From NCBI GenBank assembly GCA_049718765.1, contig JBNARI010000002.1, positions 10,052-74,051 on the forward strand: DNA of 64,000 bases, written 5' to 3'. Position numbers and translations under genes: made by a program. The notes under the pieces were generated by a model. That model worked only from the letters and a program-made list of their open reading frames with translations. It was not told where the DNA came from and ran no database searches. Below are positions 32,972 through 62,371 of this stretch, piece by piece. The stretch's first letter is position 1. The number at the start of each line of letters is the position of its first letter. This DNA is from Bacillota bacterium. GTDB lineage: Bacteria; Bacillota; Sulfobacillia; DUMF01.

Positions 32972-33427
32972 TTATCTGATCTCCGCAACCGCAGTGGCCT
33001 CCCTTCTTACCTCCAGCCTCTGCCTGCCCACAAGCCCCGCGAAGTACGCAGGGATCTGCACTCTAGCAATGACTTCCACGGTACGCAGCCCGGGGTTGGC
33101 CTCTATGTGCTCCTCTACCAGCTGCGCCCCGGGTATCTTCTGCACGTTCGCCACAAGACACTCGTACGCTGCCTGCTCCGCAGTGGCCTTGTCCATCTCC
33201 AGGTACCTTCTGTACACGCGCCCAAATGCGTCGTGCAGCACCACCTCCCGCGCCGTCAACGCACCGGCAAGGCTTGCAGCGTCCACCGCGGTCTGCAGTT
33301 GCACACGCGCAAGCTGCTGTCTGCCTGCGTCCAGCGCAAAGCCCAAGAAAGCCACCGCCACCGGCAGCAGCACCGCAAGAAATATCACCACCTGCCCGCT
33401 CTCGGAGCGCCAGCGCGCTGAGAACAA
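32972..33427 (-). CDS. TadE/TadG-like pseudopilin
   Basis: Start reassigned to TTG at 33427 with RBS GGGAGGGGGG. The N-terminus '(M)FSARWRSESGQVVIFLAVLLPVAVAFLGFALDAG' is a classic TadE-like hydrophobic segment. The upstream 116 codons of the track ORF are rejected. Confidence 0.5.
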   Translation of the reverse strand: MFSARWRSESGQVVIFLAVLLPVAVAFLGFALDAGRQQLARVQLQTAVDAASLAGALTAREVVLHDAFGRVYRRYLEMDKATAEQAAYECLVANVQKIPGAQLVEEHIEANPGLRTVEVIARVQIPAYFAGLVGRQRLEVRREATAVAEIR

Positions 33428-33477
33428 ATGTTCATCCCCCCTCCCTAAACGGCTCTCCCGAAACCGCCGGCTAGCGG

Positions 33478-33987
33478 CTAGTAAACCCCGGCAACCCTGA
33501 GCGCGGCCCATGTCAAAGCAATAAAAACAGGCACCTCCACCACCGGATCCCCGGTCACGACCGGCCCCCGCGGATGGCGCAGCCGATCCAGCCAGGGAGG
33601 CAGTGCTTTCAAAGGCACAAATGGCTCTACTCCAGTCCTGGTCAGCGCATCCAGGAACAGGTGCGAAAGAAGGCCCAGAAGCGCACACGCCCCCACAGTC
33701 CACCAGAGCGGCCGCGCCAGCCGGGCAAAAGCTGCCCCCAAGGCGGCCAGGACCGACCCTGCCAAGCAAAACCACACGGTATGCGTAATCGTCCGGTGCC
33801 CCGCCAGAGTTTCCAAGAGCGCCGATACCGGCCTCACCCGCCGCCCGACCAAGCTCCCCGGATGGTCCACATCGGGCAGCAAGGCGGCCAGAGCACCTAC
33901 TACCATCCCCGCCACGGGCTCCCCTGCCAGCCGGCCCGCCAAAGCACCGACGAGGGCGCCCGCCGCAGCGTGTGTTCTCCCTGTCAT
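33478..33987 (-). CDS. Membrane-bound metal-dependent hydrolase (DUF457/YdjM-like)
   Basis: 169 aa, multi-TM. 'LLPDVDHPGS' and 'SHLFLDALT' His/Asp motifs are typical of DUF457. Confidence 0.45.
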   Translation of the reverse strand: MTGRTHAAAGALVGALAGRLAGEPVAGMVVGALAALLPDVDHPGSLVGRRVRPVSALLETLAGHRTITHTVWFCLAGSVLAALGAAFARLARPLWWTVGACALLGLLSHLFLDALTRTGVEPFVPLKALPPWLDRLRHPRGPVVTGDPVVEVPVFIALTWAALRVAGVY

Positions 33988-34014
33988 CCTATCCCCCCCT
34001 GCCGGATGAACGTG

Positions 34015-35874
34015 CTAGAAGTAAAACCCGTCGGACGCGTTCTGCCTGACCTTCACCCGCAGACCCGACTGCTGCCCGGAAACTCCCTTGACCTCGAGTC
34101 TGCCCGCACCCGCCGGACCGTGCCTTGCCGCGCGCTTTCTGTCCCACTCGCACAGCTCCAGCCTCACCTTCAGAGGCGGAAGGGGCTCACCGTCCCTCAC
34201 CACCCGCACCACCGCACAAAACTTCGGCAGCTCCATCAACTCGGTGTACGGGTACCTCGCCTCCCTCTTCTCGGCCTCACGGTAGCCCTCCGCATACCAC
34301 GGGAAAATGAACGTCCCCTGCCTGGTGTAGCTCTTCTGCTTCTCCACCCTCTCATACTCACCCAGCTGCGCCGCAAGGTACTTCGCCTCTTCCGCAGTCC
34401 CAGGGTTCAAAATGATCTTGTTCCGCGTGTTCTCCACCATCACCTCCCGGAACGTCCGCTTCTCATCCAGCACCACCTGCGCCGTCGTCTGCAGAGCAAG
34501 CACAGCCGCACACCTGTACGACCGCCCAATCGCCAGCAGCCTCTCAAAGTCCGCGTTCACATACCGCGGAAACTCGTCCACGTACAAAACATGCGGCGTC
34601 CGCGTCCGCTCAGTCCCCTGCCTCCGGAACACAGCCTGCTGAAAGTGCAGAATGAAAAACTGCCCGAACGCGTCGCCCAGCCTCCCAAGAGGCCCCATCG
34701 CCGTGTTCACCACCAGCACGCCACCCTGCTCCAGGTGCCTGTCCAGGTCCACGTCGCTCTTCGCACACAGCACCCGCCTCAGCATCGAGTTCCCAGTCAG
34801 GTCCTCCAGCGTCAGGCGAAGGCCCATCAAGAACTGCCGCGACTTCTCGTTCTCCAAAACCTCCACCCTGAAGTAGTCAGCTACACCCTTCTTGCTCCGC
34901 TCCGCAGGACCCGCCTCCAGCCGCTTCATATACGCCTCAAGCTTCCGGTAGTCCCGCAAAGCGTCTATCAGGTCCTGCACCGTCACGTCGTCACCCTTCA
35001 CGTACTTCAAAAGCAGCACGATGTTTCTCGCCGCAAGCTCGTAGTTCGCACGGAAAAACGCCTCCTGGCGACCGAACAAATGCACCAGCACCGTCCTCAT
35101 GATCTCAGCCGCCGTCTCGGCGTCGCCCTCAAGCGGGTTGAAAGTGGCCGTCCCAGGCCACTCCGGATTGACAAACGTGCACGGTATCTCCAGATCCCTG
35201 CACATCTCGTACACGTCCTGCGCAAGATCCCCCTTCGGCTCCACAACAGTTACCCCAAGCCTGCAGCCGCGCTTCAGAGCCTGCAGGTCCTGCCATATCA
35301 TCGGCTTCAGCACCCTGCTCGTCTTCCCCGTCCCCGTCGTCCCCGTCACAAGCGTGTGCAGGTACCGGTCGTCCCTCTTTATCACCACCGGGCCGTTCGC
35401 ATACCCGATCACCACGTCCATTTCGTCCGTCCTCTGTCTCGCAGGCCCTCTGCCGGGCCGCAAGCCCAACAGAACCAGCAGGCCCACCGCGTACGGCGCA
35501 AGCAGCGCCCCCTGCCGCACAGCAGCCGCGTCCGAAACAGTCAGGTACGGCACCCGCCCCAGAGAAGCCATCCAGCGGACCGCCAAGCCCTCGAGTACCA
35601 CCGCACACAGCGACGCCACGCAAACGTACACAGCCCCTATCCCGGCCCACAGCGGCACGTCCCCCAGCTGCCCGCTCAGCACCACCAGCGCAGCGGACGC
35701 ACAGCACGACACGCACAGCAGGGCAACACTGCGCACCCACACGCCCACAACCGCGCACGCCACGCACACTCCCAACACCACACGCAAAACTCGCCTCACA
35801 GCGCCGCCTCCTTCCTGTCCGCAGCCCGGTGCAAGATCACCTGACCGGACTGAAGCCTGTAAAGACCGCTCCAA
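34015..35874 (-). CDS. Type IV coupling protein (VirD4/TraG/TraD family)
   Basis: N-terminal TM helices. Walker A 'VTGTTGTGKTSRVL', Walker B 'VLYVDEFPRY'. 619 aa. Confidence 0.8.
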   Translation of the reverse strand: MERSLQASVRSGDLAPGCGQEGGGAVRRVLRVVLGVCVACAVVGVWVRSVALLCVSCCASAALVVLSGQLGDVPLWAGIGAVYVCVASLCAVVLEGLAVRWMASLGRVPYLTVSDAAAVRQGALLAPYAVGLLVLLGLRPGRGPARQRTDEMDVVIGYANGPVVIKRDDRYLHTLVTGTTGTGKTSRVLKPMIWQDLQALKRGCRLGVTVVEPKGDLAQDVYEMCRDLEIPCTFVNPEWPGTATFNPLEGDAETAAEIMRTVLVHLFGRQEAFFRANYELAARNIVLLLKYVKGDDVTVQDLIDALRDYRKLEAYMKRLEAGPAERSKKGVADYFRVEVLENEKSRQFLMGLRLTLEDLTGNSMLRRVLCAKSDVDLDRHLEQGGVLVVNTAMGPLGRLGDAFGQFFILHFQQAVFRRQGTERTRTPHVLYVDEFPRYVNADFERLLAIGRSYRCAAVLALQTTAQVVLDEKRTFREVMVENTRNKIILNPGTAEEAKYLAAQLGEYERVEKQKSYTRQGTFIFPWYAEGYREAEKREARYPYTELMELPKFCAVVRVVRDGEPLPPLKVRLELCEWDRKRAARHGPAGAGRLEVKGVSGQQSGLRVKVRQNASDGFYF

Positions 35875-36878
35875 CCGTGCGGCTCACACACCAGAAACCA
35901 CAGACCTTCAAGACCTGCCAGGTGGCGCGCCCACCGCCTCGCCTGGGCCTCGCTCGCCACAAACACCGTCACCGGCCTCCTCCGCACGTCGTGCCCTATC
36001 AGCCCATTCACCACCTGCAGGTCACCCAACCGCAGGTCCGCAAGCAGCATCTGGCCGCGGCGGGGGTGACTCCAGGCAAACGCTGCCAGCCACCCCGCTT
36101 CCACCCCCACCAGCCGCCCGCCAGGAGCATACGCCCACATGAGCCGCTCCGCCACGCACCCAAAACTCTCCCTGACACCCCATGCGAAAACCCCAACCTC
36201 GTCCAGGGTGATCACCTTGAGCGGAGGCACAGGCGCTTCCCTCAACAGCGCCCTCACACTCGACCGCAGCTCTTTCTCGGTGCGCAGCACAAGTGTGTGC
36301 CCGCTCGCATACTGCCCGCAGCGCCTCACCGAATCACACAGCTGCCCCCTCGTGAGCTGCTCCTTCTTCACGTACACGAAGTGCAGCCCGCCTTCATGCC
36401 TCACCCCCCACGACACTGCGCACCACCTGCTCGGCGCCCGCCCCGTCGCTCTCAGCGCCTCACGCCTCGAAAGGATGTCGCCCGGGGGGATGCCGGCGAC
36501 AACCGCCCGCACATAAAACTCGTTGTCCCCAACCGCTGCAACGTACTCGCCATCTTCCAGCCTAGCCAACCCCTCGCTCAACCCAACTGCCCGCGCCCCA
36601 CGCGCCGTCAGCACCACCACGCGCTTCCGCTTGTCCCAGGGATCGGGCTTCTGCCGGAGCAACCCTGCTTTCACAAGCGCTCCCAACACGTAGTAAGCCC
36701 TCTCCAAATCACCCCCAAACAGCAGAACAGCCACCTGACTGCAGCTCAGCGCCTTCAGGTAGCCCACCCACCTCAAGACCTCCAAATCATGCTCGCCCAC
36801 ACCTGCATCCAACCCGATCACCTCCGCAACACACGCACGCTTGCAGAGGACGGGCACCATCCCCACCAGCAGGCCCAC
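35796..36878 (-). CDS. Hypothetical winged-helix protein (relaxase-accessory or replication-relaxation-like)
   Basis: 360 aa. N-terminal 'LSCSQVAVLLFGGDLERAYYVLGALVKAGLL' is wHTH-like. First gene of the operon with the coupling protein. Confidence 0.3.
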   Translation of the reverse strand: MGLLVGMVPVLCKRACVAEVIGLDAGVGEHDLEVLRWVGYLKALSCSQVAVLLFGGDLERAYYVLGALVKAGLLRQKPDPWDKRKRVVVLTARGARAVGLSEGLARLEDGEYVAAVGDNEFYVRAVVAGIPPGDILSRREALRATGRAPSRWCAVSWGVRHEGGLHFVYVKKEQLTRGQLCDSVRRCGQYASGHTLVLRTEKELRSSVRALLREAPVPPLKVITLDEVGVFAWGVRESFGCVAERLMWAYAPGGRLVGVEAGWLAAFAWSHPRRGQMLLADLRLGDLQVVNGLIGHDVRRRPVTVFVASEAQARRWARHLAGLEGLWFLVCEPHGWSGLYRLQSGQVILHRAADRKEAAL

Positions 36879-37143: not shown

Positions 37144-37848
37144 TTAGTCGAGCAATTTTTGAGGGGATAAATCGGGCTCTTCCGCATAAAAATCGTCGCC
37201 CATGCTCCCAGTTTTGGTATCGTCTGGCATCAGGGGATCAAAGCCACTCAGGCGGGCCATCTGCCTCCGCAGGGCCAGGGCCCACCGGAACAGGTGCCTG
37301 GGTTGCTCGGTGACCAGCACATCGGCTCCCGGCGTTCCGCTCAGCCTCATCTGCAGGAGCCACTTAACCTCTCCATCTGTGCGCACCACCCCTGCATCCT
37401 CCAGTGCGTCCAGAAGGGACTTCGCCCCGTAGTTGTCCAGGTCACGGCTCTTGGGCCCCAGTACGGCCACAACAACACCTGGCCTCTCCAGAGGCGCGTA
37501 CCCGAACCTCCTGCCGCCGAAGGCCTTTGCAACTGCAGTGTGCCACCAGCCTTTCATCAACCGCCAGATTTCGCGGTCCACGGAGCTGTCAAACTTCAGG
37601 TACGCATTGAGCGAAGGTGGGAGATCTCCCCGTATGCAGAGCAGTACAGCTCTCGGCGGCTGAGACCGGTACCAGGCTTGCACCCGTATGTCCACCTCCC
37701 AGTCGTCCACAGCAGGCACGCCACGCATGAGCCGCCTCATGCTCTGCGTCACTGCCAGGTAGCACTTGAGATGCATCCGCCGCATCTCTTCCAGGTCGCT
37801 CAGGCAGCTCATTTTCTCCCAAAGGCAAGCTTCCTGCCCAGGTCCCAT
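37144..37848 (-). CDS. RusA-like Holliday junction resolvase with N-terminal extension
   Basis: Start set at 'MGPGQEA' because the upstream part of the track ORF is an Arg/Trp read-through. The RusA-like core is 'VVAVLGPKSRDLDNYGAKSLLDALEDAGVVRTDGEV'. Confidence 0.45.
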   Translation of the reverse strand: MGPGQEACLWEKMSCLSDLEEMRRMHLKCYLAVTQSMRRLMRGVPAVDDWEVDIRVQAWYRSQPPRAVLLCIRGDLPPSLNAYLKFDSSVDREIWRLMKGWWHTAVAKAFGGRRFGYAPLERPGVVVAVLGPKSRDLDNYGAKSLLDALEDAGVVRTDGEVKWLLQMRLSGTPGADVLVTEQPRHLFRWALALRRQMARLSGFDPLMPDDTKTGSMGDDFYAEEPDLSPQKLLD

Positions 37849-37879
37849 CTCACCACCCCTTCCAGCACTGTCTCTCTTC

Positions 37880-38206
37880 TCATTCCCCAAGCATCCTGTC
37901 CAGTAGAGCGTCGAGCTTCGCCTCCACCTCCTTGTCCAGCTCAGGAGAGGCCCGCACCTGCGCGGCAGCGGCCGTGCCCAGCCTCTCCTCCAGCGCCGCC
38001 AGCCTCTGCTCGATCCTCTCCAGCAGCGCCAGCCTCTCTTCGATCCCACGCAGCAGCGCCCGGGTCCCGAAGTACTGCTCCACCGCAGCGCGCACGAAGG
38101 CGGCCTTGTCGCGGACCTCATCGAACTTTTGTTCGATGGCCCCGTCCAGCTTGAACGACACCCTGTACCTCTTCACCCCGCCGCTCCTCCCCTGTGGCAC
38201 AGACAA
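37880..38206 (-). CDS. ParR-like small DNA-binding protein (RHH plus coiled coil)
   Basis: 108 aa. N-terminal 'KRYRVSFKLDGAIEQKFDEV' is beta-strand/RHH-like. Lies downstream of the ParM-like gene and is flanked by TGTGGCACA repeats. Confidence 0.35.
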   Translation of the reverse strand: MSVPQGRSGGVKRYRVSFKLDGAIEQKFDEVRDKAAFVRAAVEQYFGTRALLRGIEERLALLERIEQRLAALEERLGTAAAAQVRASPELDKEVEAKLDALLDRMLGE

Positions 38207-38430
38207 ATCGGGCGCCTAGCTGGGCCAAGTCTTCAAAAACACGCATTTTGTGGCACAAGCCCCAGGGCCTGCTCTCCCCAGTGTGCCACAAGTACCACGA
38301 AGACCGCGGCATCTGCCCAGCACAGCGCCGCAAAACGGGCGCGCCACACAGTGCAGAGGGGTCTGTGCCACAACTGCACCTAAAAATGCACCATCCGCCC
38401 AGCGTGAGAGGCAAAAACTGCTGTGCCACA
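38193..38430. repeat. Centromere-like or operator repeat cluster (TGTGGCACA / TGTGCCACA)
   Basis: Copies at 38193, 38248 (TGTGGCACA) and 38282, 38364, 38422 (TGTGCCACA). These form an inverted arrangement about roughly 38270, between the parM-like and parR-like genes. Confidence 0.5.
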
Positions 38431-38443: not shown

Positions 38444-39481
38444 CTACGCGGTGGCAGTGGCCTGCGCGGCCGCCTCCCGCCTCGCTGCGAGGTTCAGGAA
38501 CCCTCTGGCGTTCGCGAACTGCGCGTCCGGCAAAAGCTGCACCGGGAACTGCCGCCTGCTGAGAGCCCCCTCCAAGACCTTCGCTCCTCCTCCTGCCAGA
38601 AACAGCACCCTCAGGTACTTGCCCCTGTCCTTCCACGTCATCCTGAGCCTCTCAGCGACTGCCTCTGCCAGCACCTCGGCGCTCTCTTCGCAGAGCTCAC
38701 CGAGCCTATATTCCCTGCCGCGGAACCACAGCTTCCCGCGCTCCATCGCCTGCTCCACCTGCAGCACGTCCACCACGTCACCCACGATCTCCTGGACCCT
38801 GTGCTGCACCGCACTGACCACGTCGCTCATCGCCATGTTCACCGTGCCGCACCCCGACTCGATTATGTCGAGGCTGCCCAAGTCCACGAGCAGGAAGTCC
38901 GTGGTCTTGTACCCGCAGTCCACCACCGCCGCAAGTCCTCCCTCCCGCAGCAGGGACTGGCCCAGGTCGCTTGCACGCCCCCGCTCGTCGAGCACTGCGC
39001 TGTAGAACGCGCCCACAGCCTGCGGCACCACCGTCACCCTGTCGAAATACACCTTCCGCCTTCCTGCGCCGCACACCTCCACGTCCGCCCTCATGGTGCT
39101 GAGCATCTGCAACAGCTCGCCCTTCTGGGTCTTGTACAGCTCGAACGGCAGCCCAGCGGCCACGTGCAGGGCACCCGGCCGGTCGTGTGCGAGCAGGACC
39201 GTAGCAGCCCCGTAAAGCACAGCGGTGAAGTGGTGACAGACCCTGCTCTCGTCGAACGCCCTGGTGGCGTTCCAGGACTCCGCCACCGCCAGCTTCCCCA
39301 CGAAGTACCTCCTGCCGTCCACCACGACCTCGTACTCCCTACGTCCCTGGCTTATGCCGAACGTATCAACAACCCGGTGCTCATACCCGTCACCTACCAC
39401 GGAGGGCATGAGCAATGTCCTTCCGGTGTCGCTCAGTCCCTTAACGTAACCGTGCCCCAGGTCAATCGCTATCCTCACCAC
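38444..39481 (-). CDS. ParM/StbA-like actin-family plasmid segregation ATPase
   Basis: N-terminal phosphate-1 motif 'IAIDLGHGYVKG', adenosine motif 'LAAVVDCGYKTTDF', C-terminal 'VLFLAGGGAK'. 345 aa. Confidence 0.6.
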   Translation of the reverse strand: MVRIAIDLGHGYVKGLSDTGRTLLMPSVVGDGYEHRVVDTFGISQGRREYEVVVDGRRYFVGKLAVAESWNATRAFDESRVCHHFTAVLYGAATVLLAHDRPGALHVAAGLPFELYKTQKGELLQMLSTMRADVEVCGAGRRKVYFDRVTVVPQAVGAFYSAVLDERGRASDLGQSLLREGGLAAVVDCGYKTTDFLLVDLGSLDIIESGCGTVNMAMSDVVSAVQHRVQEIVGDVVDVLQVEQAMERGKLWFRGREYRLGELCEESAEVLAEAVAERLRMTWKDRGKYLRVLFLAGGGAKVLEGALSRRQFPVQLLPDAQFANARGFLNLAARREAAAQATATA

Positions 39482-39764
39482 TCAGCAATCCCTCCTTCAA
39501 TTCAAGCACCGAACATGCACCTCTGACCGCAAGCACCCTGTTCGGAGGAACACTCCGAAACACCTTCACAACCTCACCTTTTCCGTCGAAGAACACCACG
39601 TCCAGCGGAGCCGGCATGAAGAAAGTGTGCACCGCGCCGCAGTGCGGGAAGTACATCCCGCACAGGTCACTTCTCCAGATGAGCCCCGTCAGCCGCTGCC
39701 AGAAGGTCCGTGCCACCGGAACCCCCAGCTTTTGGCTGAAGAGCCGCACTTCTGCTTCTTCCAC
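39462..39764 (-). CDS. DUF192 domain protein
   Basis: 'MYFPHCGAVHTFFMPAPLDVVFFDGKGEVV' matches the DUF192 (COG1430) core. Confidence 0.55.
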   Translation of the reverse strand: MEEAEVRLFSQKLGVPVARTFWQRLTGLIWRSDLCGMYFPHCGAVHTFFMPAPLDVVFFDGKGEVVKVFRSVPPNRVLAVRGACSVLELKEGLLSGEDSD

Positions 39765-40491
39765 TCAGCCTGCCCTCCTCCCGCAGTACCAGCCGGATCT
39801 TCAAGAGTTCGTGCGCCATTTCAAGAGAGTGGTGCAGCAGCCTCACAGAGCTGCCGCCAGAATGCGCCCAGCTCACGGCTACCTCCACAACCCTGTAGCC
39901 GTTCAGGAGAGCGCGGGCCAAAACCTCTGCGTCAATTGCAAAGCCGTCCGAAACGCACTGGCCAAACAGGCGCCTGGCAGCTTCCCCGCGGAACAGCTTG
40001 AACCCGCACTGCGTGTCCAACAGTTTCACTCCAAGGAGGCTCCTCACCAGCATGTTGAAAGCACGCCCCGCAACCCTCCGGGCAAACGGCTGCTGCCGCG
40101 TGATCACCGCCCCAGGGGCCCGGCGGGAGCCGACTGCAACATCTGCGCCTGCAGACAGGTACCGCTCAAGGACGCTCACCCACTCCAGGGGCACCGGCAG
40201 GTCTGCGTCTGTGGCGAGCACCAGCTCCCCTGAAGAAGCCAGCACGCCCCGCCTCAAAGCTGCCCCTTTGCCCTGGTTTGCTGGATTCCTCAGCACGGTT
40301 ATTCTGCATGGCAACTGCACCCCAAGTGCAATCCTGGCCGTCCCGTCGGTGCTTCCGTCGTCTACCACGATCACCTCTGCGCTGCGCCCGCAGCTCCGCA
40401 ACCAGCTGCCAACCCGCTCAAGTGCCGCCCCGAGCCTGCGCTCTTCGTTGTACGCGGGGATCACCACCGACAGCACCCCCTTCACCTCCAT
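39667..40491 (-). CDS. Family 2 glycosyltransferase (polyprenyl-phosphate sugar transferase-like)
   Basis: 'LSVVIPAYNEERRL', 'VVDDGSTDGTA', and a DxD region 'ATDADL'. 274 aa. Confidence 0.8.
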   Translation of the reverse strand: MEVKGVLSVVIPAYNEERRLGAALERVGSWLRSCGRSAEVIVVDDGSTDGTARIALGVQLPCRITVLRNPANQGKGAALRRGVLASSGELVLATDADLPVPLEWVSVLERYLSAGADVAVGSRRAPGAVITRQQPFARRVAGRAFNMLVRSLLGVKLLDTQCGFKLFRGEAARRLFGQCVSDGFAIDAEVLARALLNGYRVVEVAVSWAHSGGSSVRLLHHSLEMAHELLKIRLVLREEGRLSGRSRSAALQPKAGGSGGTDLLAAADGAHLEK

Positions 40492-44762: not shown

Positions 44763-44859
44763 TCACAACACCCTCCCCTTGAACCCTCCAACTCTTCTGC
44801 GTCCTCTACTGGTTGAGAAGACTGAGTGGGGGCAGAACCGCCCCCCCCTCGATCAGCCT

Positions 44860-51506: not shown

Positions 51507-51552
51507 CTGCCTCTCACCCCTCTTTCCCCCTCCCTCTGAAAGGTCGACTGCT

Positions 51553-56629: not shown

Positions 56630-57946
56630 TCACGACAGGCCCTTAGGCAGCCAGCCCTCCTTGACGACTTCCTTCGCCTTTACGAGCAGGTCCTCCATGG
56701 TGATCCCGTCCACACCCGTCCTGGCTCCCCTCCGCACGGCCCTCTCCGCCGCACCCTTGCAGATGCCTACTATGACGGCAGGCGAGCAGCCGTCGGTGAT
56801 CCGTGCAAGAAAGTCCAGGTCGATCTCGCCCAGAACGGGCCTCTCCGCGAGCAGCTTCGAAAAAAGAGCTTTGCGCCCCTCGAAGTCCGGCAGACCCACC
56901 TGCACGTGCCTGTCGAACCGCCCCGGTCTCAGAAGCGCTTCGTCCAGCACGTCTATCCTGTTGGTCGCACCGATCACGAACACGTCGCCCCTTGCCGAAA
57001 CGCCGTCAAGCTCCACCAGCAGCTGGTTCAGCAGCACATCGCTCGCCCGGTTCATGTGCGCCCCGTCGCGTCGCCTGCCTATGGCGTCGAGCTCGTCTAT
57101 GAACACTATGGCAGGCTTCCCACACCTGCGGGCTGCATGCCTTGCCAGGGCAAACACCTGGCTCAGCTTCTTCTCCGACGCGCCCACCCACTTCTCCAGC
57201 ACCACACTCGGCCTCACTTCAATCAGCGGGCAGCCGAAGTACTCCGCTGTCGCCCTCGCAAGCGACGTTTTGCCTGTCCCAGGTGGGCCGTAAAGCAGGA
57301 CGCCACGCGCAGGGTCGATCTTGTAGAGTTTCGCCCGCTCCGGGTCCTTAAGCCAGACTTCCAGTGCCCCAAGCATTTCCTCCACTGCGCGCTCGACCCC
57401 CACTAGGCCGTCAAACGCTTGCGGGTTCGGCCCCTTCACGACCACCTCTATACCGTCCACCGAATCACCTCCCGTTCCGATGGGACTGGCCCACGCCTTC
57501 TGGGGCAGCTGCCTTCTCACAGCCTGCAGCCTCCTCACCTCACCAAACAGACGCATGTTCACGAAGTACCCGAGCACCAGCCCCAGCAGCTGCACCAGCT
57601 CTCGAGCGTTCCTGGAGGCCCCAGGCACGAAGAACCCGGCGAGAATCGCGTGCCCGGCTGCCCCTTTCGTCACGAAGCAGCACAGCACAGTGGCTACAAT
57701 GGTCGCATAAGATACCTCGTGAGGCAGCAGCCCCAGCCCCAGAAACAGGCTCCTCCACGTGTACGGCAGGGGACCGCCCCGGTACCAGCCGTAGCACGCA
57801 TACCCAACCGCCACCACCGAAGCCGCAAACAGTAGAGTGCAGAGCGCTCCCACAAGGCTCATCCGCACCCCTGTCCTCGCACCGTTCATCCGCATCCCTC
57901 CTCTTCTGGAGCCGCCACCCTGTGCAAACACAGTCCCGCCCTGCAC
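56630..57946 (-). CDS. Membrane-anchored AAA+ ATPase (classic FtsH/Cdc48 clade)
   Basis: N-terminal TM helices. Walker A 'LLYGPPGTGKTSLA', Walker B 'IVFIDELDAIG', SRH 'ATNRIDVLDEALLRPGRFDRHVQVGLPD'. Confidence 0.8.
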   Translation of the reverse strand: MQGGTVFAQGGGSRRGGMRMNGARTGVRMSLVGALCTLLFAASVVAVGYACYGWYRGGPLPYTWRSLFLGLGLLPHEVSYATIVATVLCCFVTKGAAGHAILAGFFVPGASRNARELVQLLGLVLGYFVNMRLFGEVRRLQAVRRQLPQKAWASPIGTGGDSVDGIEVVVKGPNPQAFDGLVGVERAVEEMLGALEVWLKDPERAKLYKIDPARGVLLYGPPGTGKTSLARATAEYFGCPLIEVRPSVVLEKWVGASEKKLSQVFALARHAARRCGKPAIVFIDELDAIGRRRDGAHMNRASDVLLNQLLVELDGVSARGDVFVIGATNRIDVLDEALLRPGRFDRHVQVGLPDFEGRKALFSKLLAERPVLGEIDLDFLARITDGCSPAVIVGICKGAAERAVRRGARTGVDGITMEDLLVKAKEVVKEGWLPKGLS

Positions 57947-58025: not shown

Positions 58026-59909
58026 CTACTCTTCGTGCTCGCCTTCCCGCTTCTGTGTTAGGCCAAGCAGCTCCCACTCGTTCTCAGACACTGTCACACG
58101 CACCGCGGCGTACTGGCTCCTGTCGCTCCCGACCCGCAGAAGCCCCTGGCCGGTCCCGCACGTCCGCAGGAAGTCCCTCTGCCCCTCGGCCAGCTTGAAG
58201 AACTCGCACACGGCCTCAAACTCAGTCGCGTTCTGCTTCATCAGGAACACGCTGTCAAGGTTGCCCATCGTCGCCTGGCCCTTGGGGTTCTGGAACTCGC
58301 AGAAGTGCTGCGTGGCCACCACCAGAGAGCAGTTCCTCTTCCTGGCGCGCCGCGCCATCAGCTCCAGAAAGCTCGCCGTGTCCTCGTACTTCTCGAACAG
58401 CCAGCCCTCGTCCACCACAACCCTCAGCTTCTGCTTCGGCCCCTTCAGGGGGTTCTTCTTTACAAACGCCTCCCAGACCCACTCAAGGCAGACGTGCATG
58501 GCAAACGGCCTCGCTATGCTTTCTTCCAGCCTGGAAACGTCAAACGCCACGAGCAGCGCGTCCCCCAGGCGTATGCTTGACTGGCCGTCGAAGAACCCCA
58601 GGCTCCCTCCCCTGAGGCAGGGCTTCAGCACCGTCCTCAGCCTCTCGGCCCTTTCACCGTACTTGCCCAGCCTCTCGTACAGGGAGCTGAACGTGGGCAT
58701 CTCCTTCTTCACAGGCCCCACGTACACTCTGCCGCCTTCAATCCTGTCCCTCTTCTCGTACAGCGACTCCGGGGCCTGGGTTATCCCCCTCGCCCCGTAC
58801 TCCTCCCTGACCGCTTCCTCTAGAATGGCGCCCTCTTCCGGCGTGAGCCGCTCACCAGCGCTCTGCAGCAGCACCGCGACCAGCGACTTTACGTCGCTCA
58901 CCTTGTCCAGCACCGGCACCCTGTAGCTGCCGTCTTCCCCCTGCTCCGGCTCGAGGTCGAACGGGTTCACGTACACCTCGTCCGCATCCGGGGTCAGCCT
59001 CACGTAGACCCCGCCCATCGCCCGTACGAGGTCGCCGTACTCCCCTTCCGGGTCCAGGAAGACAGTCCTAACCCCAAGCACCGCAGACCTGGCTGCAAGC
59101 ACCTTCAGGAACGTCGTCTTGCCCGCACCGGAAGTCGCTACCACCCCCAGGTGCGGGTTCTGCAGCAGCGGCGGCCCTATGAACGAGTCGTAGAACACGG
59201 GCGCACCCGTGACGAGGTTCATCCCCAGCAGCACGCCCTCCGGGTGGACCACGTCCGCACCAGACCAGGGGAACAGCGCCGTCGCCGCGTACAGGTCGAA
59301 GTTCCGGTACACGTCCATCATCCGGTTGTCGCCGAGGGGCATCACAGTCCTCAGGGCATCAGCCTGCCTCAGAAAGGCCTGTCTCACGTGCACCGCACGC
59401 CCGCCCAGCTTCTCCTCCAGCACCTTGCACTGCCTGTCCAGCTCTTCAAGGCTCTTTGCGGCCACCGAAAAGTGCACCGCAACCGCAAACATGCGGTTCT
59501 GGTTCGTCTGTACCTGCTCCCGCAGCGCCCAGGCGTCCTGCTCCACCCTCCTGAGTACCGACAGGTTCCTGTAGTCACCGCGCTTCTCGTCCGCAATGAC
59601 CTGCGCCTGGATGTTGATGATCTGCTGCGTCAGGGAATCGATCACCTCCTTGTCCGGTATCGGGTACACGTACACCGACACATCCACGTCGCCTGCAGTG
59701 TAAAGGTCGTCCAGCCACCCTACGAACACCTGGCTCGGCACTTCTGACACGAAGTACTGCCTCACGTACCGCCCCGAGCCGATCTGCACGTGCGAGCGCT
59801 CCACGTATATCCCGTCAGGGGCAACCAGGTCGTGCAGCGTCGTCACACCGCCCTCAAAGCTCGGACCCCTGACCCGGAGCTGCTCACCTGCGCCCTTCTT
59901 TCGCCACAC
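58026..59909 (-). CDS. VirB4-family conjugation ATPase (Gram-positive TcpF/PrgJ-like)
   Basis: Walker A 'VVATSGAGKTTFLKVL', Walker B 'RVVVDEGWLF'. 627 aa. Confidence 0.85.
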   Translation of the reverse strand: MWRKKGAGEQLRVRGPSFEGGVTTLHDLVAPDGIYVERSHVQIGSGRYVRQYFVSEVPSQVFVGWLDDLYTAGDVDVSVYVYPIPDKEVIDSLTQQIINIQAQVIADEKRGDYRNLSVLRRVEQDAWALREQVQTNQNRMFAVAVHFSVAAKSLEELDRQCKVLEEKLGGRAVHVRQAFLRQADALRTVMPLGDNRMMDVYRNFDLYAATALFPWSGADVVHPEGVLLGMNLVTGAPVFYDSFIGPPLLQNPHLGVVATSGAGKTTFLKVLAARSAVLGVRTVFLDPEGEYGDLVRAMGGVYVRLTPDADEVYVNPFDLEPEQGEDGSYRVPVLDKVSDVKSLVAVLLQSAGERLTPEEGAILEEAVREEYGARGITQAPESLYEKRDRIEGGRVYVGPVKKEMPTFSSLYERLGKYGERAERLRTVLKPCLRGGSLGFFDGQSSIRLGDALLVAFDVSRLEESIARPFAMHVCLEWVWEAFVKKNPLKGPKQKLRVVVDEGWLFEKYEDTASFLELMARRARKRNCSLVVATQHFCEFQNPKGQATMGNLDSVFLMKQNATEFEAVCEFFKLAEGQRDFLRTCGTGQGLLRVGSDRSQYAAVRVTVSENEWELLGLTQKREGEHEE

Positions 59910-60642
59910 TGCCTGTCACCTCCGGCCTTCGGCCCGAGACGTACGGCTCAAAAAAGCCGTGGTCGACGGCGTCCCGCGCCCTCGCATACGCGCTGCGCTC
60001 CTTGTTCAGCACCGTGTACAGCAGCTCCACAACCTCGTCGGTCGTCAGCTTCCTCCACTTGAGCCACCTGGAAAGCTCTGAGCCGACCACCTCGGCCCTC
60101 CGCAGGAGCTCCTGCCTGGCAAGGCTGAACCTGTCTTCCCCCGGACCAGCGTCGTAGTGGATGACCACGTAGTTCTTCCGCACCAGCGGCGAGTACCGCG
60201 CCCACGCGGCCAAGTACTGGCTGAGCTCCCGCGCGTACCGCCTCAGCTCGGTCGGCAGCCCGGGCATCCGCTCTTCAATCCCCTGGATCTGTCTGCTGAG
60301 GTCAATCTGCCGGGTCTGCGTGTAAAACTGCACCGGGAACGTCAGCGACGCCACCAGAGTCCTGAATGACGCCTCGATGTTGTCCTGCTCTGTCTCGGAA
60401 AGCAGCGGGAAGTTCACTGTACCCACAACTTCCAGCACCAGCCTGTACCTGCCACCTGGCAGCACCACAATCCCGTCGCGTATGTCCTCGAAGCCGAGGA
60501 AGCGCTGGGCTGAGGCGCGCACCTCCAGCTGCGGTCCACTGTCCTCTGCTTGTTTGAGGTACCGCTTCCTGGCCCTTTGCAGAAAGAAAACTGCTGCAGC
60601 GCACACAGCCGCAGCGGGCACCAACGGCCAGAGTTGCGTCAA
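59884..60642 (-). CDS. Membrane-anchored protein paralogous to the VirB4 N-terminal domain
   Basis: 'FEDIRDGIVVLPGGRYRLVLEVVGTVNFPLLSETEQDNI...FPVQFY' parallels the VirB4 N-terminus 'VAPDGIYVERSHVQIGSGRYVRQYFVSEVPSQVFVGWLDDL...VSVYVYPI'. Confidence 0.35.
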   Translation of the reverse strand: MTQLWPLVPAAAVCAAAVFFLQRARKRYLKQAEDSGPQLEVRASAQRFLGFEDIRDGIVVLPGGRYRLVLEVVGTVNFPLLSETEQDNIEASFRTLVASLTFPVQFYTQTRQIDLSRQIQGIEERMPGLPTELRRYARELSQYLAAWARYSPLVRKNYVVIHYDAGPGEDRFSLARQELLRRAEVVGSELSRWLKWRKLTTDEVVELLYTVLNKERSAYARARDAVDHGFFEPYVSGRRPEVTGSVAKEGRR

Positions 60643-60965
60643 GGCACATCCCTCCGGTATGGGAACTCCCGTGGCCTAACGTAGAACAGCACCAGCGCCC
60701 AGAGGTAGCGGTCCAGCGGCATGTCCAGACCAGGCACCCTCACAAACGCCAGCGCTGCAGCAAAGGCCAGAATAGCACCTGCTCCCGCAAGACCCACCCC
60801 AGCCGAAAACGGCCTGAGGGCGCCATGCATCGCAAACGCACCCACAACCCCCGTGAGCACGTACATGGCCTGCCTGAGCGTTGCCTTCCCGCCGAATATC
60901 TTGGGCTCTTCGTCGAGCAGGATCGGAGTGCGGTACAGCCTCAACTCACTGCACCCCCTGCGCAA
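60639..60965 (-). CDS. PrgI/VirB3-like small membrane protein
   Basis: 108 aa. 'ATLRQAMYVLTGVVGAFAM' followed by a second TM helix. Immediately upstream of the VirB4 block. Confidence 0.4.
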   Translation of the reverse strand: MRRGCSELRLYRTPILLDEEPKIFGGKATLRQAMYVLTGVVGAFAMHGALRPFSAGVGLAGAGAILAFAAALAFVRVPGLDMPLDRYLWALVLFYVRPREFPYRRDVP

Positions 60966-61314
60966 AGCCCTTCAGCCAGCCGGCCAGCAGGTGGCTCGAG
61001 AACACGATCAGCGCGCCAATCGTAGTATGCACCAGCCCCTCCATAGCCTCGGCGCGCTTACGCGGGTCAGGCGATGCAGCGAGCTTGTACCCGTTTATGA
61101 TGTACCCCGCTATCACGATGATCGCTCCCAGCGAACGCAGCAGGTTCAGAATAGCAACTGCGAAGTTCACCAGGAAGTTAACGCTTGTCCCCGTGTTCAG
61201 CCCGTCGTCTCCGGTCGACGGATTGGGCACAGGTACACTCCCACTTGCCGCCTCAGCAACCGCCGGAAACAGTGCCACCAGCAGGGCCAAGATTGCACAG
61301 AACGCCCTCATCAT
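60946..61314 (-). CDS. TrbC/VirB2-like pilin-type protein
   Basis: Start reassigned to ATGATG at 61314 with RBS GGAGGGAGGGTG. Signal peptide 'MMRAFCAILALLVALFPAVAEA', then two hydrophobic helices ('LVNFAVAILNLL', 'GAIIVIAGYIINGY'). Confidence 0.5.
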   Translation of the reverse strand: MMRAFCAILALLVALFPAVAEAASGSVPVPNPSTGDDGLNTGTSVNFLVNFAVAILNLLRSLGAIIVIAGYIINGYKLAASPDPRKRAEAMEGLVHTTIGALIVFSSHLLAGWLKGFAQGVQ

Positions 61315-61420
61315 TTCACCCTCCCTCCACGAAAAGATGATCAGCTCACTCCATCCAGCAAGGCTCAGGAGAATCGGAACGCGCAAACTGTCTGCGGGAT
61401 TGTCCGGTGCGATACAAAAA

Positions 61421-62371
61421 CTATCCGTCTTCGAAAACCTGCCACGGGGGATCTGCAACAACGGGGCGCTTGCTCAAAAGCGACTCCCTCAGATTCTTGA
61501 TAATCGCGGACACTTCAGACATTCCATCGACGTTTGCGGAACCGTCATCCGGATAGCATTCCCCAGGACCGCAGGAGCAAGAGGACGCACACACAGAGCG
61601 GCCGCAGCCTTGGGAAAGCTTATCCGGTTCCGAGTTCCGAACGTTAACTGGTGGACATTCGGTTTTACAATTCTTTGTTGTAGTCTCTGTAATAATCTCT
61701 GATGTAATCTCTGATATTACACGTCCATTTTTTAACGCTCGAGCGTCCATTTTGGAACATCGAGCGTCCAAATTGGACGTTCGAACGTCCAAAATGGAAC
61801 ATCGAACGTCCACCGTGGACGTTCGGGCGTGAGCTGGGCTTTCTTTACCAGCAGCTTGATCCTGAAAACCTCCTGCTTCTGCTAGTTCGGGTACAAGCGA
61901 GTACCCGTCAAGGCAGTATCCCAGCTTAGTCAGTTCTTCCTGTATGCGCGCCAGGTTAACCCGGTACTGCATCGTCTTGCTCCACCGGTACCGCGGGTCA
62001 GTTCGCTCGCTCACGTAGCCCCTGTCGATGAGCTCCTGCAGGTGGCGCCTGATCGTCTGCCGCGACAGTCCCAGCATGGTCTCCTCATTTAGTTCCTCGG
62101 CCGATTTGTAAATCCAGCCGTGAGTCTCCTGCACCACACACTGGGGAACCTCTCCCCCGTGCTTGAGCTCTTCTTCCACCCGCTGCCTCTCTTCGCGGAT
62201 GTACGCATCGATGTCGGCAGCGCGCTCGGTCCAGTAAATTAGCTGGTTGAGCAACACCGCTTTTACAAAGTCGCCGGTAAGGGCGACAAGCTCTTCTTTG
62301 ATCACAGCCCTCTTAAGTTTGCGCGGATTGTCCACTGACTGCTGCACCCCCTGCCCCGTGCCCCGAGGCAC
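61421..62371 (-). CDS. RepA_N-family replication initiator (Firmicute plasmid/ICE type) with internal iterons
   Basis: N-terminal 'LLNQLIYWTERA...THGWIYKSAEELNEETMLGLSRQTIRRHLQELIDRGYVSER' fits the RepA_N pattern (NGW.Y.s.eeL.e.lg.S..Ti.r....L...GlI...R). The ORF reads through a 21-bp repeat array. The C-terminal extent is uncertain. Confidence 0.55.
   Translation of the reverse strand: MPRGTGQGVQQSVDNPRKLKRAVIKEELVALTGDFVKAVLLNQLIYWTERAADIDAYIREERQRVEEELKHGGEVPQCVVQETHGWIYKSAEELNEETMLGLSRQTIRRHLQELIDRGYVSERTDPRYRWSKTMQYRVNLARIQEELTKLGYCLDGYSLVPELAEAGGFQDQAAGKESPAHARTSTVDVRCSILDVRTSNLDARCSKMDARALKNGRVISEITSEIITETTTKNCKTECPPVNVRNSEPDKLSQGCGRSVCASSCSCGPGECYPDDGSANVDGMSEVSAIIKNLRESLLSKRPVVADPPWQVFEDG
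61719..61824. repeat. Iteron array: five tandem 21-bp units, each an internal palindrome (GAACGTCCA...TGGACGTTC)
   Basis: Units at 61741, 61762, 61783 and 61804 (GAGCGTCCATTTTGGAACATC / GAGCGTCCAAATTGGACGTTC / GAACGTCCAAAATGGAACATC / GAACGTCCACCGTGGACGTTC), plus a degenerate unit at 61719. Preceded by TAATCTCTGAT direct repeats (61693-61715) in a locally AT-rich patch. Confidence 0.7.

Follow-up and report, generated by a model that had tools for sequence, protein, structure and literature searches.

Tad/Flp pilus genes within a Gram-positive-type T4SS block of a Sulfobacillia bacterium, an arrangement shared with known Firmicutes plasmids

Described elements combining secretion and pilus genes

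The toxin-gene-carrying plasmids pCLJ and pCLK of Clostridium botulinum/sporogenes (~260 kb, low GC) transfer by conjugation experimentally, and the sole candidate transfer region named by the authors is the T4SS/Tad region, published as a 'conjugation region' of type II/IV secretion components, of which the VirB2-like/VirB6-like pair of pCLJ has already been modelled. In pCLK, the T4SS part runs from a sigma-70-like gene to PrgI, a VirB4-N-like ORF, VirB4, a VirB6-like protein, a wall hydrolase, and a small ORF, and continues into a Tad part of SAF/CpaB, a CpaE-like protein, the T2SSE ATPase, TadB, TadC, small ORFs, TadE, a Tad-domain protein, and the prepilin peptidase, followed by ParM/StbA. 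Similarly, the backbone of the Sulfobacillus thermotolerans plasmids pL15 and pY0017 has been published as a conjugation system with T4SS and T2SS homologues (CpaF/TadA, TadB/C, StbA, TraG, VirB4), and the plasmid-like region of Kr1 indicates that an integrated form exists. The linear plasmids of Cutibacterium acnes (p15.1.R1 family), also from a monoderm host, bear a tad locus adjoining VirB4, TcpC-like, and FtsK-like genes, and the paper describing them asks explicitly whether Flp pili are tied to the conjugation apparatus.

A type IV pilus system besides the T4SS is also found on the Gram-negative conjugative elements R64 (IncI), which additionally carries the PilV shufflon, and PAPI-1; the R64 thin pilus helps mating in liquid and the PAPI-1 pilus is essential for transfer. 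Moreover, VirB2-like pilins now revise the pilus-less view of monoderm conjugation. Tad is unmentioned in a 2025 T4SS review, and our literature search found no published experiment in which conjugation of Gram-positive bacteria was linked to a Tad pilus.

The locus described here lies in a 64-kb window (the whole stretch of DNA that was analysed) and is a further case of this arrangement, which is not new, since it has been mentioned at the annotation level for the Sulfobacillus plasmids and pCLJ/pCLK; T4SS and Tad/T2SS components likewise appear together in the C. acnes plasmid paper. The preliminary description, which had taken the arrangement to be undescribed as a unit, is corrected in this respect; its premise of pilus-less monoderm conjugation is being overturned by the VirB2-like pilins, of which the present element carries two.

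Organization of the block

Positions 33-62 kb of the window hold ~36 tightly packed, co-directional genes, all on the minus strand, with three functions, namely a Gram-positive-type T4SS, a complete secretin-less Tad set, and maintenance genes. This composition had been proposed beforehand, and nearly every gene call was verified; no secretin was present among the ORFs of the block. Throughout the block, neighbouring genes overlap or are separated by no more than 112 nt, the exceptions being parC and the space before the wHTH gene. Within the 64-kb window, no relaxase, oriT, or integrase was identified, and the leftmost 13-15 kb consist of housekeeping-looking DNA of lower GC. The T4SS genes, and two further genes beside them, are the following:

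60946..61314, minus strand: VirB2-like T4SS pilin (PF18895 T4SS_pilin, 37.1 bits, above the gathering score)
60639..60965, minus strand: PrgI family protein, VirB3-like (PF12666, 35.1 bits)
59884..60642, minus strand: split-off VirB4 N-terminal domain, one TM (252 aa)
58026..59909, minus strand: VirB4 ATPase (P-loop_TraG, DUF87, AAA_10)
56630..57946, minus strand: membrane-anchored AAA+ ATPase, FtsH/Cdc48-type, without a protease domain (PF00004, 137 bits)
54688..56601, minus strand: VirB6-like polytopic membrane protein (~8 hydrophobic segments)
53652..54731, minus strand: membrane-anchored M23 peptidoglycan hydrolase (Peptidase_M23, 112 bits)
53266..53661, minus strand: second VirB2-like small membrane protein (signal peptide, two TM, short charged loop)
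51093..51972, minus strand: two paralogous NTF2-fold lipoproteins, VirB8-like candidates
35796..36878, minus strand: MarR-like wHTH protein whose C-terminal domain has no match; conserved, always directly upstream of VirD4
34015..35799, minus strand: VirD4-type coupling protein (TrwB_AAD_bind, TraG-D_C, T4SS-DNA_transf)

The first pilin has the layout signal peptide, TM, charged loop, TM, and relatives bear a TrbC/T4SS_pilin gene in the matching position; the second scores 15.9 bits with T4SS_pilin, below threshold, and corresponds to a conserved 125-134-aa ORF that follows the hydrolase in relatives. The VirB4 ATPase matches, at 100% identity, an NCBI MAG protein annotated as VirB4 family, and VirD4 is 100% identical to P0105. 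The product of 59884..60642 had been read as a VirB4-N-domain paralogue, a reading that was rejected because it aligns with residues 6-185 of the fused 812-aa VirB4 P0038 (40% identity, E=6e-30) and is hence the split N-terminal domain of VirB4; its homologue in the relative L001 shows a weak TraC-like PF26593 match. The AAA+ ATPase occupies the same position in five relatives (L001-L003, L006, L008) and is a clade-specific accessory protein, and the M23 hydrolase is a VirB1 functional analogue. Domain-family profile searches gave no family match for the VirB6-like protein, and all relatives have a VirB6-like gene between VirB4 and the hydrolase, the pCLK counterpart being weakly similar. The lipoproteins, already recognized as paralogues in the preliminary description, share 33% identity (E=4e-18) and are now proposed as VirB8-like candidates. 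The protein beside VirD4, which matches MarR-like wHTH folds only, is a candidate relaxosome component. Overall, the set has in common with the pCF10/pIP501-type T4SS the PrgI/VirB3, VirB4, VirB6-like, VirB8-like NTF2, wall hydrolase, VirD4, and VirB2-like (PrgF) proteins.

The maintenance functions are encoded at the right end of the block and between the Tad genes and VirD4:

61421..62371, minus strand: replication-initiator-like wHTH protein, O-like/DnaD-like (PHROGs)
38444..39481, minus strand: ParM/Alp actin-like partition ATPase (ALP_N, 88 bits; MreB-like_C, 94 bits)
38193..38430, unstranded: parC-like centromere with five TGTGCCACA copies, two inverted and three direct
37880..38206, minus strand: putative ParR-like small protein, assigned from its position after ParM/parC

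All five copies of TGTGCCACA in the whole window fall inside 38193-38430, against 0.78 expected, and none of 100 shuffles contained at least five. Both ParM and the centromere-like repeats expected from the earlier reading were borne out, and ParR was assigned by position: domain-family profile searches returned no match for it, and L088 and L089 hold a 91-97-aa ORF in the same place. Likewise, the iterons of the presumed RepA_N module were found, as about five 21-nt repeats at 61722-61830 within the initiator gene itself, but RepA_N was rejected, as the protein has no such match in Pfam, NCBIfam, or PDB and PHROGs return a DnaD-like loader (E=3e-12) and an O-like replication initiation protein (E=5e-11). 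Its N-terminal domain is conserved on 34 plasmids, and pAACI01 shares this Rep-like domain at 51% identity.

The Tad genes lie between these groups, flanked by the MPF genes and by ParM/VirD4, the TadG-like gene being located on their far side with VirD4:

51981..53279, minus strand: degenerate ParA/CpaE-like protein with an N-terminal receiver-like domain (CbiA, 32.6 bits)
50302..51030, minus strand: CpaB/RcpC (RcpC, 59.7 bits, plus SAF)
49113..50327, minus strand: CpaE/TadZ ParA-type ATPase (CbiA, AAA_31)
47787..49112, minus strand: CpaF/TadA motor ATPase (T2SSE, PF00437, 220 bits)
46879..47790, minus strand: TadB platform protein (T2SSF, 62 bits)
43297..44184, minus strand: TadC platform protein (T2SSF, 77 bits)
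43106-43300, minus strand: Flp1 pilin (Flp_Fap, 34.8 bits, above the gathering score)
42926-43099, minus strand: Flp2 pilin (Flp_Fap, 22.6 bits, below the gathering score; G/QGLVEY motif)
42365..42862, minus strand: CpaA/TadV prepilin peptidase (Peptidase_A24, 56 bits)
41925..42413, minus strand: TadE pseudopilin (PF07811, 53 bits)
32972-33775 (longest ORF), minus strand: TadG-like pseudopilin (PF13400 Tad, 43 bits)

The pilins bear G/XXXXEY motifs (EG/QSLTEY and AG/QGLVEY), and CpaF shares 50-55% identity with canonical CpaF proteins of the functional type. The second ParA-like protein, correctly termed degenerate at the outset, has the Walker A motif SPAPCGKT in place of KGGxGKT and is kept in relatives. 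Together with the VirB8-like genes, it lies exactly at the junction of the T4SS and Tad sets, where gaps are small or genes overlap (VirB2b, ParA-like, lipoprotein, and CpaB genes have neighbours at no more than 62 nt or overlapping) and a hairpin/terminator scan of the block found no intergenic terminator between the two.

Further genes accompany these sets:

46819..46845, minus strand: strongest terminator-like hairpin of the block, just after TadB (12-bp stem, 8 GC pairs, T tail)
44191..46766, minus strand: secondary insertion splitting TadB from TadC (ParB-like, wHTH, Cys-rich, and Hjc/PD-(D/E)XK-like proteins)
39462..41898, minus strand: polytopic membrane protein, GT2 glycosyltransferase, DUF192
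37144..37860, minus strand: RusA-like resolvase-domain protein (phrog_34, E=6e-6)
33478-33987, minus strand: YdjM membrane protein (YdjM, 108 bits)
20033..32948, minus strand: SLH proteins and 472-aa secreted, 956-aa fn3, beta-propeller, S1-like, and 289-aa proteins (Pfam)

The insertion, with ParB_N, HTH_ParB, and phrog_4715 (E=6e-25) matches, is missing from the close relative L088, in which TadB is directly beside TadC; L088 also has neither the polytopic membrane protein nor the glycosyltransferase at the position of 39462..41898. The genes of 20033..32948 have counterparts in L089 beside the TadG-like gene, ParM, and VirD4, and are thus common to the element family.

Conservation of the arrangement

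The T4SS-Tad-ParM-VirD4 order is kept in relatives with 84%, 81%, and 53% VirB4 identity, and T4SS genes are found beside Tad genes in five of the six circular plasmids sampled (pCLK, pAACI01, pGspE55-1, the Paenibacillus SY20 plasmid, and pVpro). pCLK is co-linear with the window from T4SS through Tad to ParM/StbA, as is pCLJ, although its VirB4 is only 35% and its T2SSE ATPase only 28% identical, its hydrolase is C40 instead of M23, it has no AAA+ ATPase, and its second ParA-like protein and lipoprotein pair were undetected by similarity search. In pAACI01 (Alicyclobacillus), pGspE55-1 (Geobacillus), the Paenibacillus thiaminolyticus SY20 plasmid, and pVpro (Vallitalea), PrgI, VirB4 (32-39% identity), the VirB6-like protein, and the hydrolase adjoin SAF/CpaB, a ParA-type ATPase, T2SSE, and T2SSF, and in the Geobacillus and Paenibacillus plasmids the Tad block is upstream of the T4SS, whereas in the window it is downstream. 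The hosts of these four circular plasmids are cultured monoderm Firmicutes. To judge by published description, pL15/pY0017 and the Kr1 region also resemble the window, and differ in an annotated MOBP relaxase and LtrC primase, neither of which was found here. Also different are the C. acnes plasmids, which have an actinobacterial host, linear form, and another conjugation gene set, and whose tad is beside the transfer genes instead of between MPF and T4CP genes, and R64 and PAPI-1, whose pili are of type IVb with a secretin rather than Tad/IVc and whose MPF classes differ too; for R64 and PAPI-1 there is no evidence of common descent with the present system.

Gene order thus shows, at the sequence level, that the elements of a Firmicutes family inherit the T4SS-Tad-ParM-VirD4 arrangement as one unit. 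No element boundary falls between 37 and 53 kb, and the flanking MPF and ParM/VirD4 genes, the small gaps, the missing terminator, and the order kept in relatives and circular plasmids support the original assignment of the Tad genes to the element. A chance meeting of a chromosomal Tad locus with an unrelated T4SS remnant, which the housekeeping-like, lower-GC left end and the lack of integrase and relaxase in the window could suggest, is in effect refuted by the gene order shared with several relatives and with circular plasmids. The location of VirD4 and the TadG-like gene beyond the Tad genes also speaks against it.

Proposed role of the Tad pilus

The block is best read, with a probability of roughly 0.55, as the genes for transfer and maintenance that form the backbone of a conjugative element of an uncultured Firmicute, whether a plasmid or a plasmid-like form that has integrated, and whose Tad pilus promotes mating-pair formation. 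Specifically, the T4SS would provide the DNA channel, with the VirB2-like proteins forming a short conduit, and the CpaF-driven Flp pilus would catch recipient cells or surfaces and draw donor and recipient together, forming or stabilizing mating pairs by analogy with the thin pilus of the Gram-negative plasmid R64; the surface proteins encoded nearby (SLH, fn3, and beta-propeller) may be accessory adhesins. The proposal is supported by the family assignments, the identity of CpaF to canonical forms, the kept order, the small gaps, the continuity across the T4SS/Tad junction, and the transfer of pCLK/pCLJ, as well as by the falling together of VirB4 and CpaF similarity (Spearman rho 0.85, p=0.0016, n=10), and by R64 and PAPI-1, in which a type IV pilus assists or is needed for conjugation. 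It is weakened by the lack of relaxase and oriT in the window and by the TadB/TadC insertion, which, being preceded by the hairpin, could hamper expression of the downstream TadC, Flp pilins, peptidase, and TadE.

A further weakness is that no Tad genes lie near VirB4 in a gut Clostridia clade (~35% identity) and in B. thuringiensis BTB_502p, which suggests that a T4SS of this type can do without them nearby. The same observation favours a less probable alternative in which the pilus would be cargo that benefits the host through adhesion, aggregation, or biofilm formation, carried within the transfer operon with no direct part in DNA transfer and an indirect gain for the element through denser communities. 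Indeed, Tad loci are classic single-locus units, often horizontally transferred and in some cases plasmid-borne, and the C. acnes tad is discussed chiefly in terms of adhesion and interaction with the host. Cargo, however, is usually found in variable regions, whereas here Tad keeps its place between MPF and ParM/VirD4 in deeply diverged elements from many host genera, abuts the T4SS genes, and diverges in parallel with them (CpaF with VirB4).

The junction bears on the unlikely idea of one chimeric machine, modelled on PAPI-1, with CpaF as a VirB11-type ATPase and the Tad platform or pilus obligatory in the DNA route. CpaF and VirB11 belong to the same ATPase superfamily (PF00437), Gram-positive T4SSs are said to be universally without VirB11, and the VirB8-like and second ParA-like genes lie exactly where the sets meet. 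Nevertheless, a full T4SS of its own, with two VirB2-like pilins and a VirB6-like protein, leaves the element no need for a borrowed conduit, related T4SSs occur without neighbouring Tad genes, and the complete, canonical Tad set fits an autonomous pilus machine.

Lastly, the roles of Tad pilus systems in other settings are adhesion, colonisation, or the uptake of DNA, which also detracts from a mating role. Uptake, by natural transformation or retro-transfer, is very improbable here: its precedent is Micrococcus luteus, in which the tad locus, as cited in the C. acnes plasmid paper, is needed for transformation and not for adherence, but no ComEA, ComEC, or DprA-type genes were seen among the block ORFs scanned and the linkage is to export-type conjugation genes. 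The window accordingly holds a further member of a kind of element found on known plasmids, including the botulinum-toxin plasmids, in which a Tad pilus may promote mating-pair formation.

Gene content and organization of the block

Genes were called by GC3 and ORF length and then scanned against Pfam, NCBIfam, and PHROGs. In the flagged region, nearly all coding sequence lies on the minus strand, and the block genes are co-directional without exception (36/36), with gaps of at most 112 nt and frequent overlaps, apart from a 237-nt gap that houses a repeat cluster and a 265-nt gap that precedes the gene of a wHTH protein. The preliminary description had assigned Tad, T4SS, and maintenance genes to one co-directional block, and the family scans and the gene order bear this out with corrections: which genes are present, how tightly they are packed in one direction, and that their linkage is conserved are direct observations. 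The GC content is about 63-65% at 14-60 kb versus 55% at 1-11 kb. In the sense of transcription, from 62.4 kb to 33 kb, the order is as follows:

Start: Rep-like initiator, VirB2-like T4SS_pilin protein, PrgI/VirB3, 252-aa ORF, VirB4
After VirB4: membrane-anchored AAA+ ATPase, VirB6-like protein, M23 hydrolase, second VirB2-like protein, degenerate ParA-like protein, two lipoproteins
After the lipoproteins: CpaB, CpaE, CpaF, TadB, four-gene insert, TadC, Flp1, Flp2, A24 peptidase, TadE
After TadE: membrane protein, GT2, DUF192, ParM, repeat cluster, ParR-like ORF, RusA-like protein
End: wHTH protein, VirD4, YdjM, TadG-like protein, SLH proteins

The Tad/Flp pilus genes

The features of the Tad set discussed here are:

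43106-43300: Flp pilin
44191-46845 (-): four-gene cassette between TadB and TadC (ParB-like protein with a coiled coil, wHTH protein, Cys-rich protein, Hjc/PD-(D/E)XK-like protein)
46845-46819: terminator-like hairpin preceding the cassette, the strongest such hairpin in the region
47787-49112 (-): CpaF ATPase

The Flp pilin scores 34.8 bits against Flp_Fap, above the gathering score, and the second Flp copy 22.6 bits; the Flp processing motifs (EG/QSLTEY and AG/QGLVEY) are of the G/XXXXEY type, and G/XXXXE[Y/L] motifs are present in both Flp pilins and in TadE. Moreover, the block encodes a TadV/CpaA-type prepilin peptidase of 165 aa (Peptidase_A24, 56 bits), the TadA/CpaF ATPase (T2SSE, 220 bits) with a split TadB/TadC platform (two T2SSF proteins), TadZ/CpaE and RcpC/CpaB (CbiA/AAA_31 and RcpC plus SAF matches), and pseudopilins of the TadE/TadF/TadG group (TadE PF07811, 53 bits; PF13400 Tad, 43 bits). 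With regard to the diderm-only secretin RcpA/CpaC and pilotin TadD, no secretin was found among the block ORFs or the called genes of the relatives; because monoderm Tad systems have as a rule lost the secretin, its absence is no argument against membership in this group. The host itself is taken to be a monoderm, judging by the hosts of related elements.

The CpaF of the window shares 50-55% identity with canonical CpaF proteins from Actinobacteria and Proteobacteria; its identity to the ATPases of the megaplasmid composites of pCLK, Geobacillus, and Paenibacillus (loci L004, L005, and L090) is lower, at 28-34%. This contrast between sequences suggests that, in the two plasmid clades, the Tad genes have strongly diverged or were acquired independently. 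The cassette between TadB and TadC is absent from L088, the locus of a relative with 81% VirB4 identity, and together with its hairpin it may uncouple the expression of the downstream Tad genes and may impair the pilus in the element of the window.

The conjugative T4SS and the relaxase question

The features of the transfer set with their positions are:

35796-36878 (-): wHTH protein directly upstream of VirD4
56630-57946 (-): membrane-anchored AAA+ ATPase of the FtsH/Cdc48 type, devoid of a protease domain, between VirB4 and the VirB6-like gene
60946-61314: VirB2-like pilin (T4SS_pilin, 37 bits)

VirB4 matches P-loop_TraG, DUF87, and AAA_10, is 100% identical to a protein encoded on a 122,256-bp contig of an NCBI MAG labelled 'Bacillota bacterium', and has a split N-terminal domain. 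The latter is the 252-aa ORF, which had been read as a paralogue of the VirB4 N-domain and is to be reassigned, since its alignment to fused VirB4 proteins of 812 aa covers their residues 6-185 (40% identity, E=6e-30). The coupling protein VirD4 matches TrwB_AAD_bind, TraG-D_C, and T4SS-DNA_transf; the VirB3-like protein and the hydrolase match PrgI (35 bits) and M23 (112 bits), and the second VirB2-like candidate scores below threshold. The VirB6-like protein is a candidate by topology (about eight hydrophobic segments) and conserved position, and the two lipoproteins are candidate VirB8-like proteins.

The AAA+ ATPase is kept at its site in the close-clade loci L001-L003, L006, and L008, is absent from pCLK, and falls outside the described Gram-positive T4SS sets. 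In relatives, genes related to c-di-GMP are found in or beside the module, namely one for an EAL protein, placed between the ParA-like gene and the lipoprotein genes, and one for a GGDEF protein that follows VirD4 (L002 17611-18261; L003 17614-18330; L088 12959-13954), with no equivalent in the window; they hint that, in these relatives, a second messenger may control the pilus or transfer.

No relaxase family match was obtained among the ORFs scanned against Pfam, NCBIfam, and PHROGs in the window, a 64-kb part of a contig of 122 kb, and no oriT was found. Likewise, pCLK, pAACI01 of Alicyclobacillus, pVpro of Vallitalea, and the SY20 plasmid have no relaxase according to MOB-suite, which labels them non-mobilizable, though pCLK transfers; PLSDB types the related plasmids as MPF_T. 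The protein directly upstream of VirD4 is fast-evolving, family-wide, and always there (L088 8733-10004; L089, the locus of a 53% relative, 8945-9982). It combines a MarR-like wHTH with a C-terminal domain of about 230 residues for which no structural counterpart was detected, and its structural model matched wHTH folds only. It is a candidate relaxosome component, and the element family may employ an unrecognised relaxase, possibly this very protein.

Replication initiator and partition

61421-62371 (-): Rep-like initiator
61722-61830: about five 21-nt repeats (iterons) within the rep-like gene
38193-38430: cluster of TGTGCCACA repeats between parM and the parR-like ORF

The initiator had been described as RepA_N; its function stands, while the family does not, as PF06970 is not matched in Pfam even at E<=5 and no such match is found in NCBIfam or PDB. 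Specifically, PHROGs relate the protein to a DnaD-like loader (E=3e-12) and to O-like replication-initiation proteins (E=5e-11). The iterons reported with the initiator are present, and their location inside the rep gene is a layout that also occurs in RepA_N plasmids and in phage lambda O, the protein of the window being no RepA_N member. The N-terminal stretch of 145 residues has matches on 34 plasmids, almost all of them Firmicutes plasmids, and is 51% identical in pAACI01. This domain is also encoded on four plasmids of Candidatus Paracaedimonas acanthamoebae (plasmid matches H112 and H118-H120; 36-45% identity), a host well outside the Firmicutes, which are recorded in PLSDB as from Acanthamoeba polyphaga. 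A 289-aa protein at 20033-20902 was considered as a paralogue of the Rep-like protein and rejected on comparison.

The actin-like ATPase of the partition system matches ALP_N and MreB-like_C, as expected of ParMRC. The centromere-like repeats hold up: all five copies of TGTGCCACA in the 64 kb fall within 238 bp (expected 0.78; 0/100 shuffles reached five). The cluster is not upstream of parM, which is the position of the centromere in the classical parMRC of R1. The 108-aa ORF that follows parC has no family match and is a candidate ParR by place; small ORFs are likewise placed in L088 and L089.

Extent of the element and linkage of the Tad genes

The attribution of the Tad genes to the element was tested against a boundary between 37 and 53 kb, and it holds, as the gene order conserved in relatives runs across this junction. 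The relatives with 84% and 53% VirB4 identity keep the pilin, PrgI, VirB4-N, VirB4, AAA, VirB6-like, M23, small ORF, ParA-like, lipoprotein, CpaB, CpaE, and CpaF genes, and L088 goes on from CpaF through TadB, TadC, Flp, a small ORF, A24, TadE, DUF192, ParM, and three ORFs to VirD4. Compared with L088, the window has two secondary insertions, the TadB/TadC cassette and the membrane protein plus GT2 after TadE. The reading that the Tad and T4SS genes are neighbours by chance is to be set against this shared order, and it is the least credible of those considered. In L089, fn3, 472-aa, GT2, beta-propeller, TadG-like, ParM, VirD4, ParB_N, and S1 genes are grouped; because counterparts of the window genes at 20-33 kb are among them, these genes are also part of the element family, and the element thus begins at about 20 kb or further left and continues past 64 kb.

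Further features were noted in the left part of the window:

1-11000: catabolic/housekeeping block, including IclR, an M24 peptidase, 4-hydroxy-2-oxovalerate aldolase, acetaldehyde dehydrogenase, and a hydratase
14951-16876 (-): single 641-aa ORF with an N-terminal SLH region and a C-terminal HAD hydrolase
17250-17690 (+): Doc-like gene
17700-19400: about 1.7 kb with no convincing ORF (low-GC3 frames only), flanked by the Doc-like gene and a DUF6847 gene
22308-23058 (-): PIN-domain protein overlapped by a small antitoxin-like ORF
23827-32948 (-): surface/secreted cluster (beta-propeller/WD40-like protein, 956-aa fn3 protein, 472-aa protein, two SLH proteins)

In a 53% relative, the surface cluster is conserved together with the TadG-like gene (L089 1-6321), and its products may be accessory adhesins or pilus-associated proteins. 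The leftmost 13-15 kb is housekeeping-like (IclR, meta-cleavage pathway genes, proC, an MFS transporter, a MeaB-like GTPase), and the 55%-GC block is either chromosome flanking an integrated element or megaplasmid cargo; a search of the window found no tRNA genes, and no integrase was found among the ORFs examined. The 641-aa ORF may stem from a gene fusion, a frameshift, or an error of assembly, and the stretch at 17700-19400 may harbour a junction, the remains of a gene, or an RNA. The Doc-like and PIN/antitoxin-like genes, toward the probable left part of the element, are toxin-antitoxin-type calls made from sequence alone.

Distribution and published record

A VirB4 tblastn search matched 710 PLSDB plasmids, the best at 35-40% identity; a megablast of 22 kb against plasmids returned only a 300-bp CpaF match, and a metagenome scan with TadC had no matches. 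The prevalence of the T4SS-Tad arrangement on plasmids was estimated by sampling: Tad-like genes adjoin the T4SS on five of the six plasmids inspected (pCLK, pGspE55-1 of Geobacillus, pAACI01, the Paenibacillus thiaminolyticus SY20 plasmid, and pVpro), the sixth, B. thuringiensis BTB_502p, having no Tad genes within 18 kb. The gene order of pCLK is co-linear with the window all the way to the prepilin peptidase and ParM/StbA. Its type of ATPase is common to 14 botulinum/sporogenes plasmids, the only ones recovered by a strict search for the pCLK-type CpaF.

Species genomes were scanned with a narrower VirB4 alignment, an 18-sequence alignment being too diverse. A VirB4 relative is present in 247 of them, and 80 loci were inspected. 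Among these, the clade with at least 42% VirB4 identity, whose hosts include Thermovenabulum, Fervidicola, Caldanaerobacter, and Thermoanaerobacter, often has CpaB/CpaF downstream; at or below 35% identity, mostly in gut 'uncultured Clostridia', CpaB/CpaF were found at 3 loci and not at 61. The similarities of VirB4 and CpaF decrease in step (rho 0.85, p=0.0016, n=10); at locus ends, a number of CpaF matches are cut short.

The preliminary description had proposed a pilus delivered with the transfer machinery in an arrangement not yet described. Synteny upholds the placement of the Tad genes within the element, while the novelty falls to the known plasmids and papers: the layout recurs on the sampled plasmids and has annotation-level mention for the Sulfobacillus plasmids pL15/pY0017 and for the neurotoxin plasmids pCLJ/pCLK. 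Specifically, in the Sulfobacillus paper the backbone of pL15/pY0017 is presented as a conjugation system containing T4SS as well as T2SS homologues (CpaF/TadA, TadB/C, StbA, TraG, VirB4), and pCLK and pCLJ are conjugatively transferable, their 'conjugation region' being described only as type II/IV secretion components. T4SS-Tad elements are, in sum, a known and widespread kind, of which the window is one more member; it adds a high-GC representative with a canonical CpaF and annotation refinements, and no new kind of system.

The composite is missing from current T4SS reviews. The 2025 T4SS nomenclature review does not mention Tad, treats type IV pilus and T4SS together for R64 and PAPI-1 only, and describes Gram-positive systems as having no VirB11. 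A single chimeric machine, with CpaF in the stead of VirB11, is improbable. A C. acnes plasmid paper poses the link between the Flp pilus and the conjugation apparatus as an open question. A December 2025 preprint reports that pCF10 cannot transfer without the VirB2-like PrgF and that more than 1000 Gram-positive plasmids, pCLJ among them, encode VirB2-like proteins; it makes no mention of Tad.

Possible role of the Tad pilus in conjugation

The reading favoured here, with a probability of roughly 0.55, is a division of labour drawn by analogy, in which the T4SS would transport DNA and a CpaF-driven Flp pilus would make and tighten the contact between donor and recipient, as the thin pilus of R64. 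Weak points of this reading are that neither a relaxase among the scanned ORFs nor an oriT was found, and that the cassette between TadB and TadC may impair the pilus here. That the Tad pilus is adhesion cargo carried by the element is the foremost of the other explanations and a rather unlikely one, and a pilus for DNA uptake is very improbable. Extending the mating-contact reading to the widespread Firmicutes conjugative family that includes pCLJ/pCLK, the co-inherited Tad/Flp genes would encode a putative dedicated mating organelle, required for transfer or strongly boosting it; this wider proposal is tentative and is held with distinctly less confidence than the mating-contact role itself.

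There is still debate on how Gram-positive donors find and hold recipients; the proposal of VirB2-like pili dates only from late 2025. If the reading of a mating organelle is true, Gram-positive bacteria would have their first case of conjugation that depends on a type IV pilus, and a second pilus type would stand beside the newly recognised VirB2-like pilus in one transfer apparatus. The window offers a clean and complete gene set from a monoderm conjugative family that carries the whole Tad machine inside the transfer operon, and the same design is found on experimentally transferable botulinum-toxin plasmids. A role of Tad would bear on the spread of toxin genes and on the evolution of conjugation machineries. 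The value of the locus lies in pointing to a testable role of the Tad pilus in Gram-positive conjugation, rather than in its own novelty.
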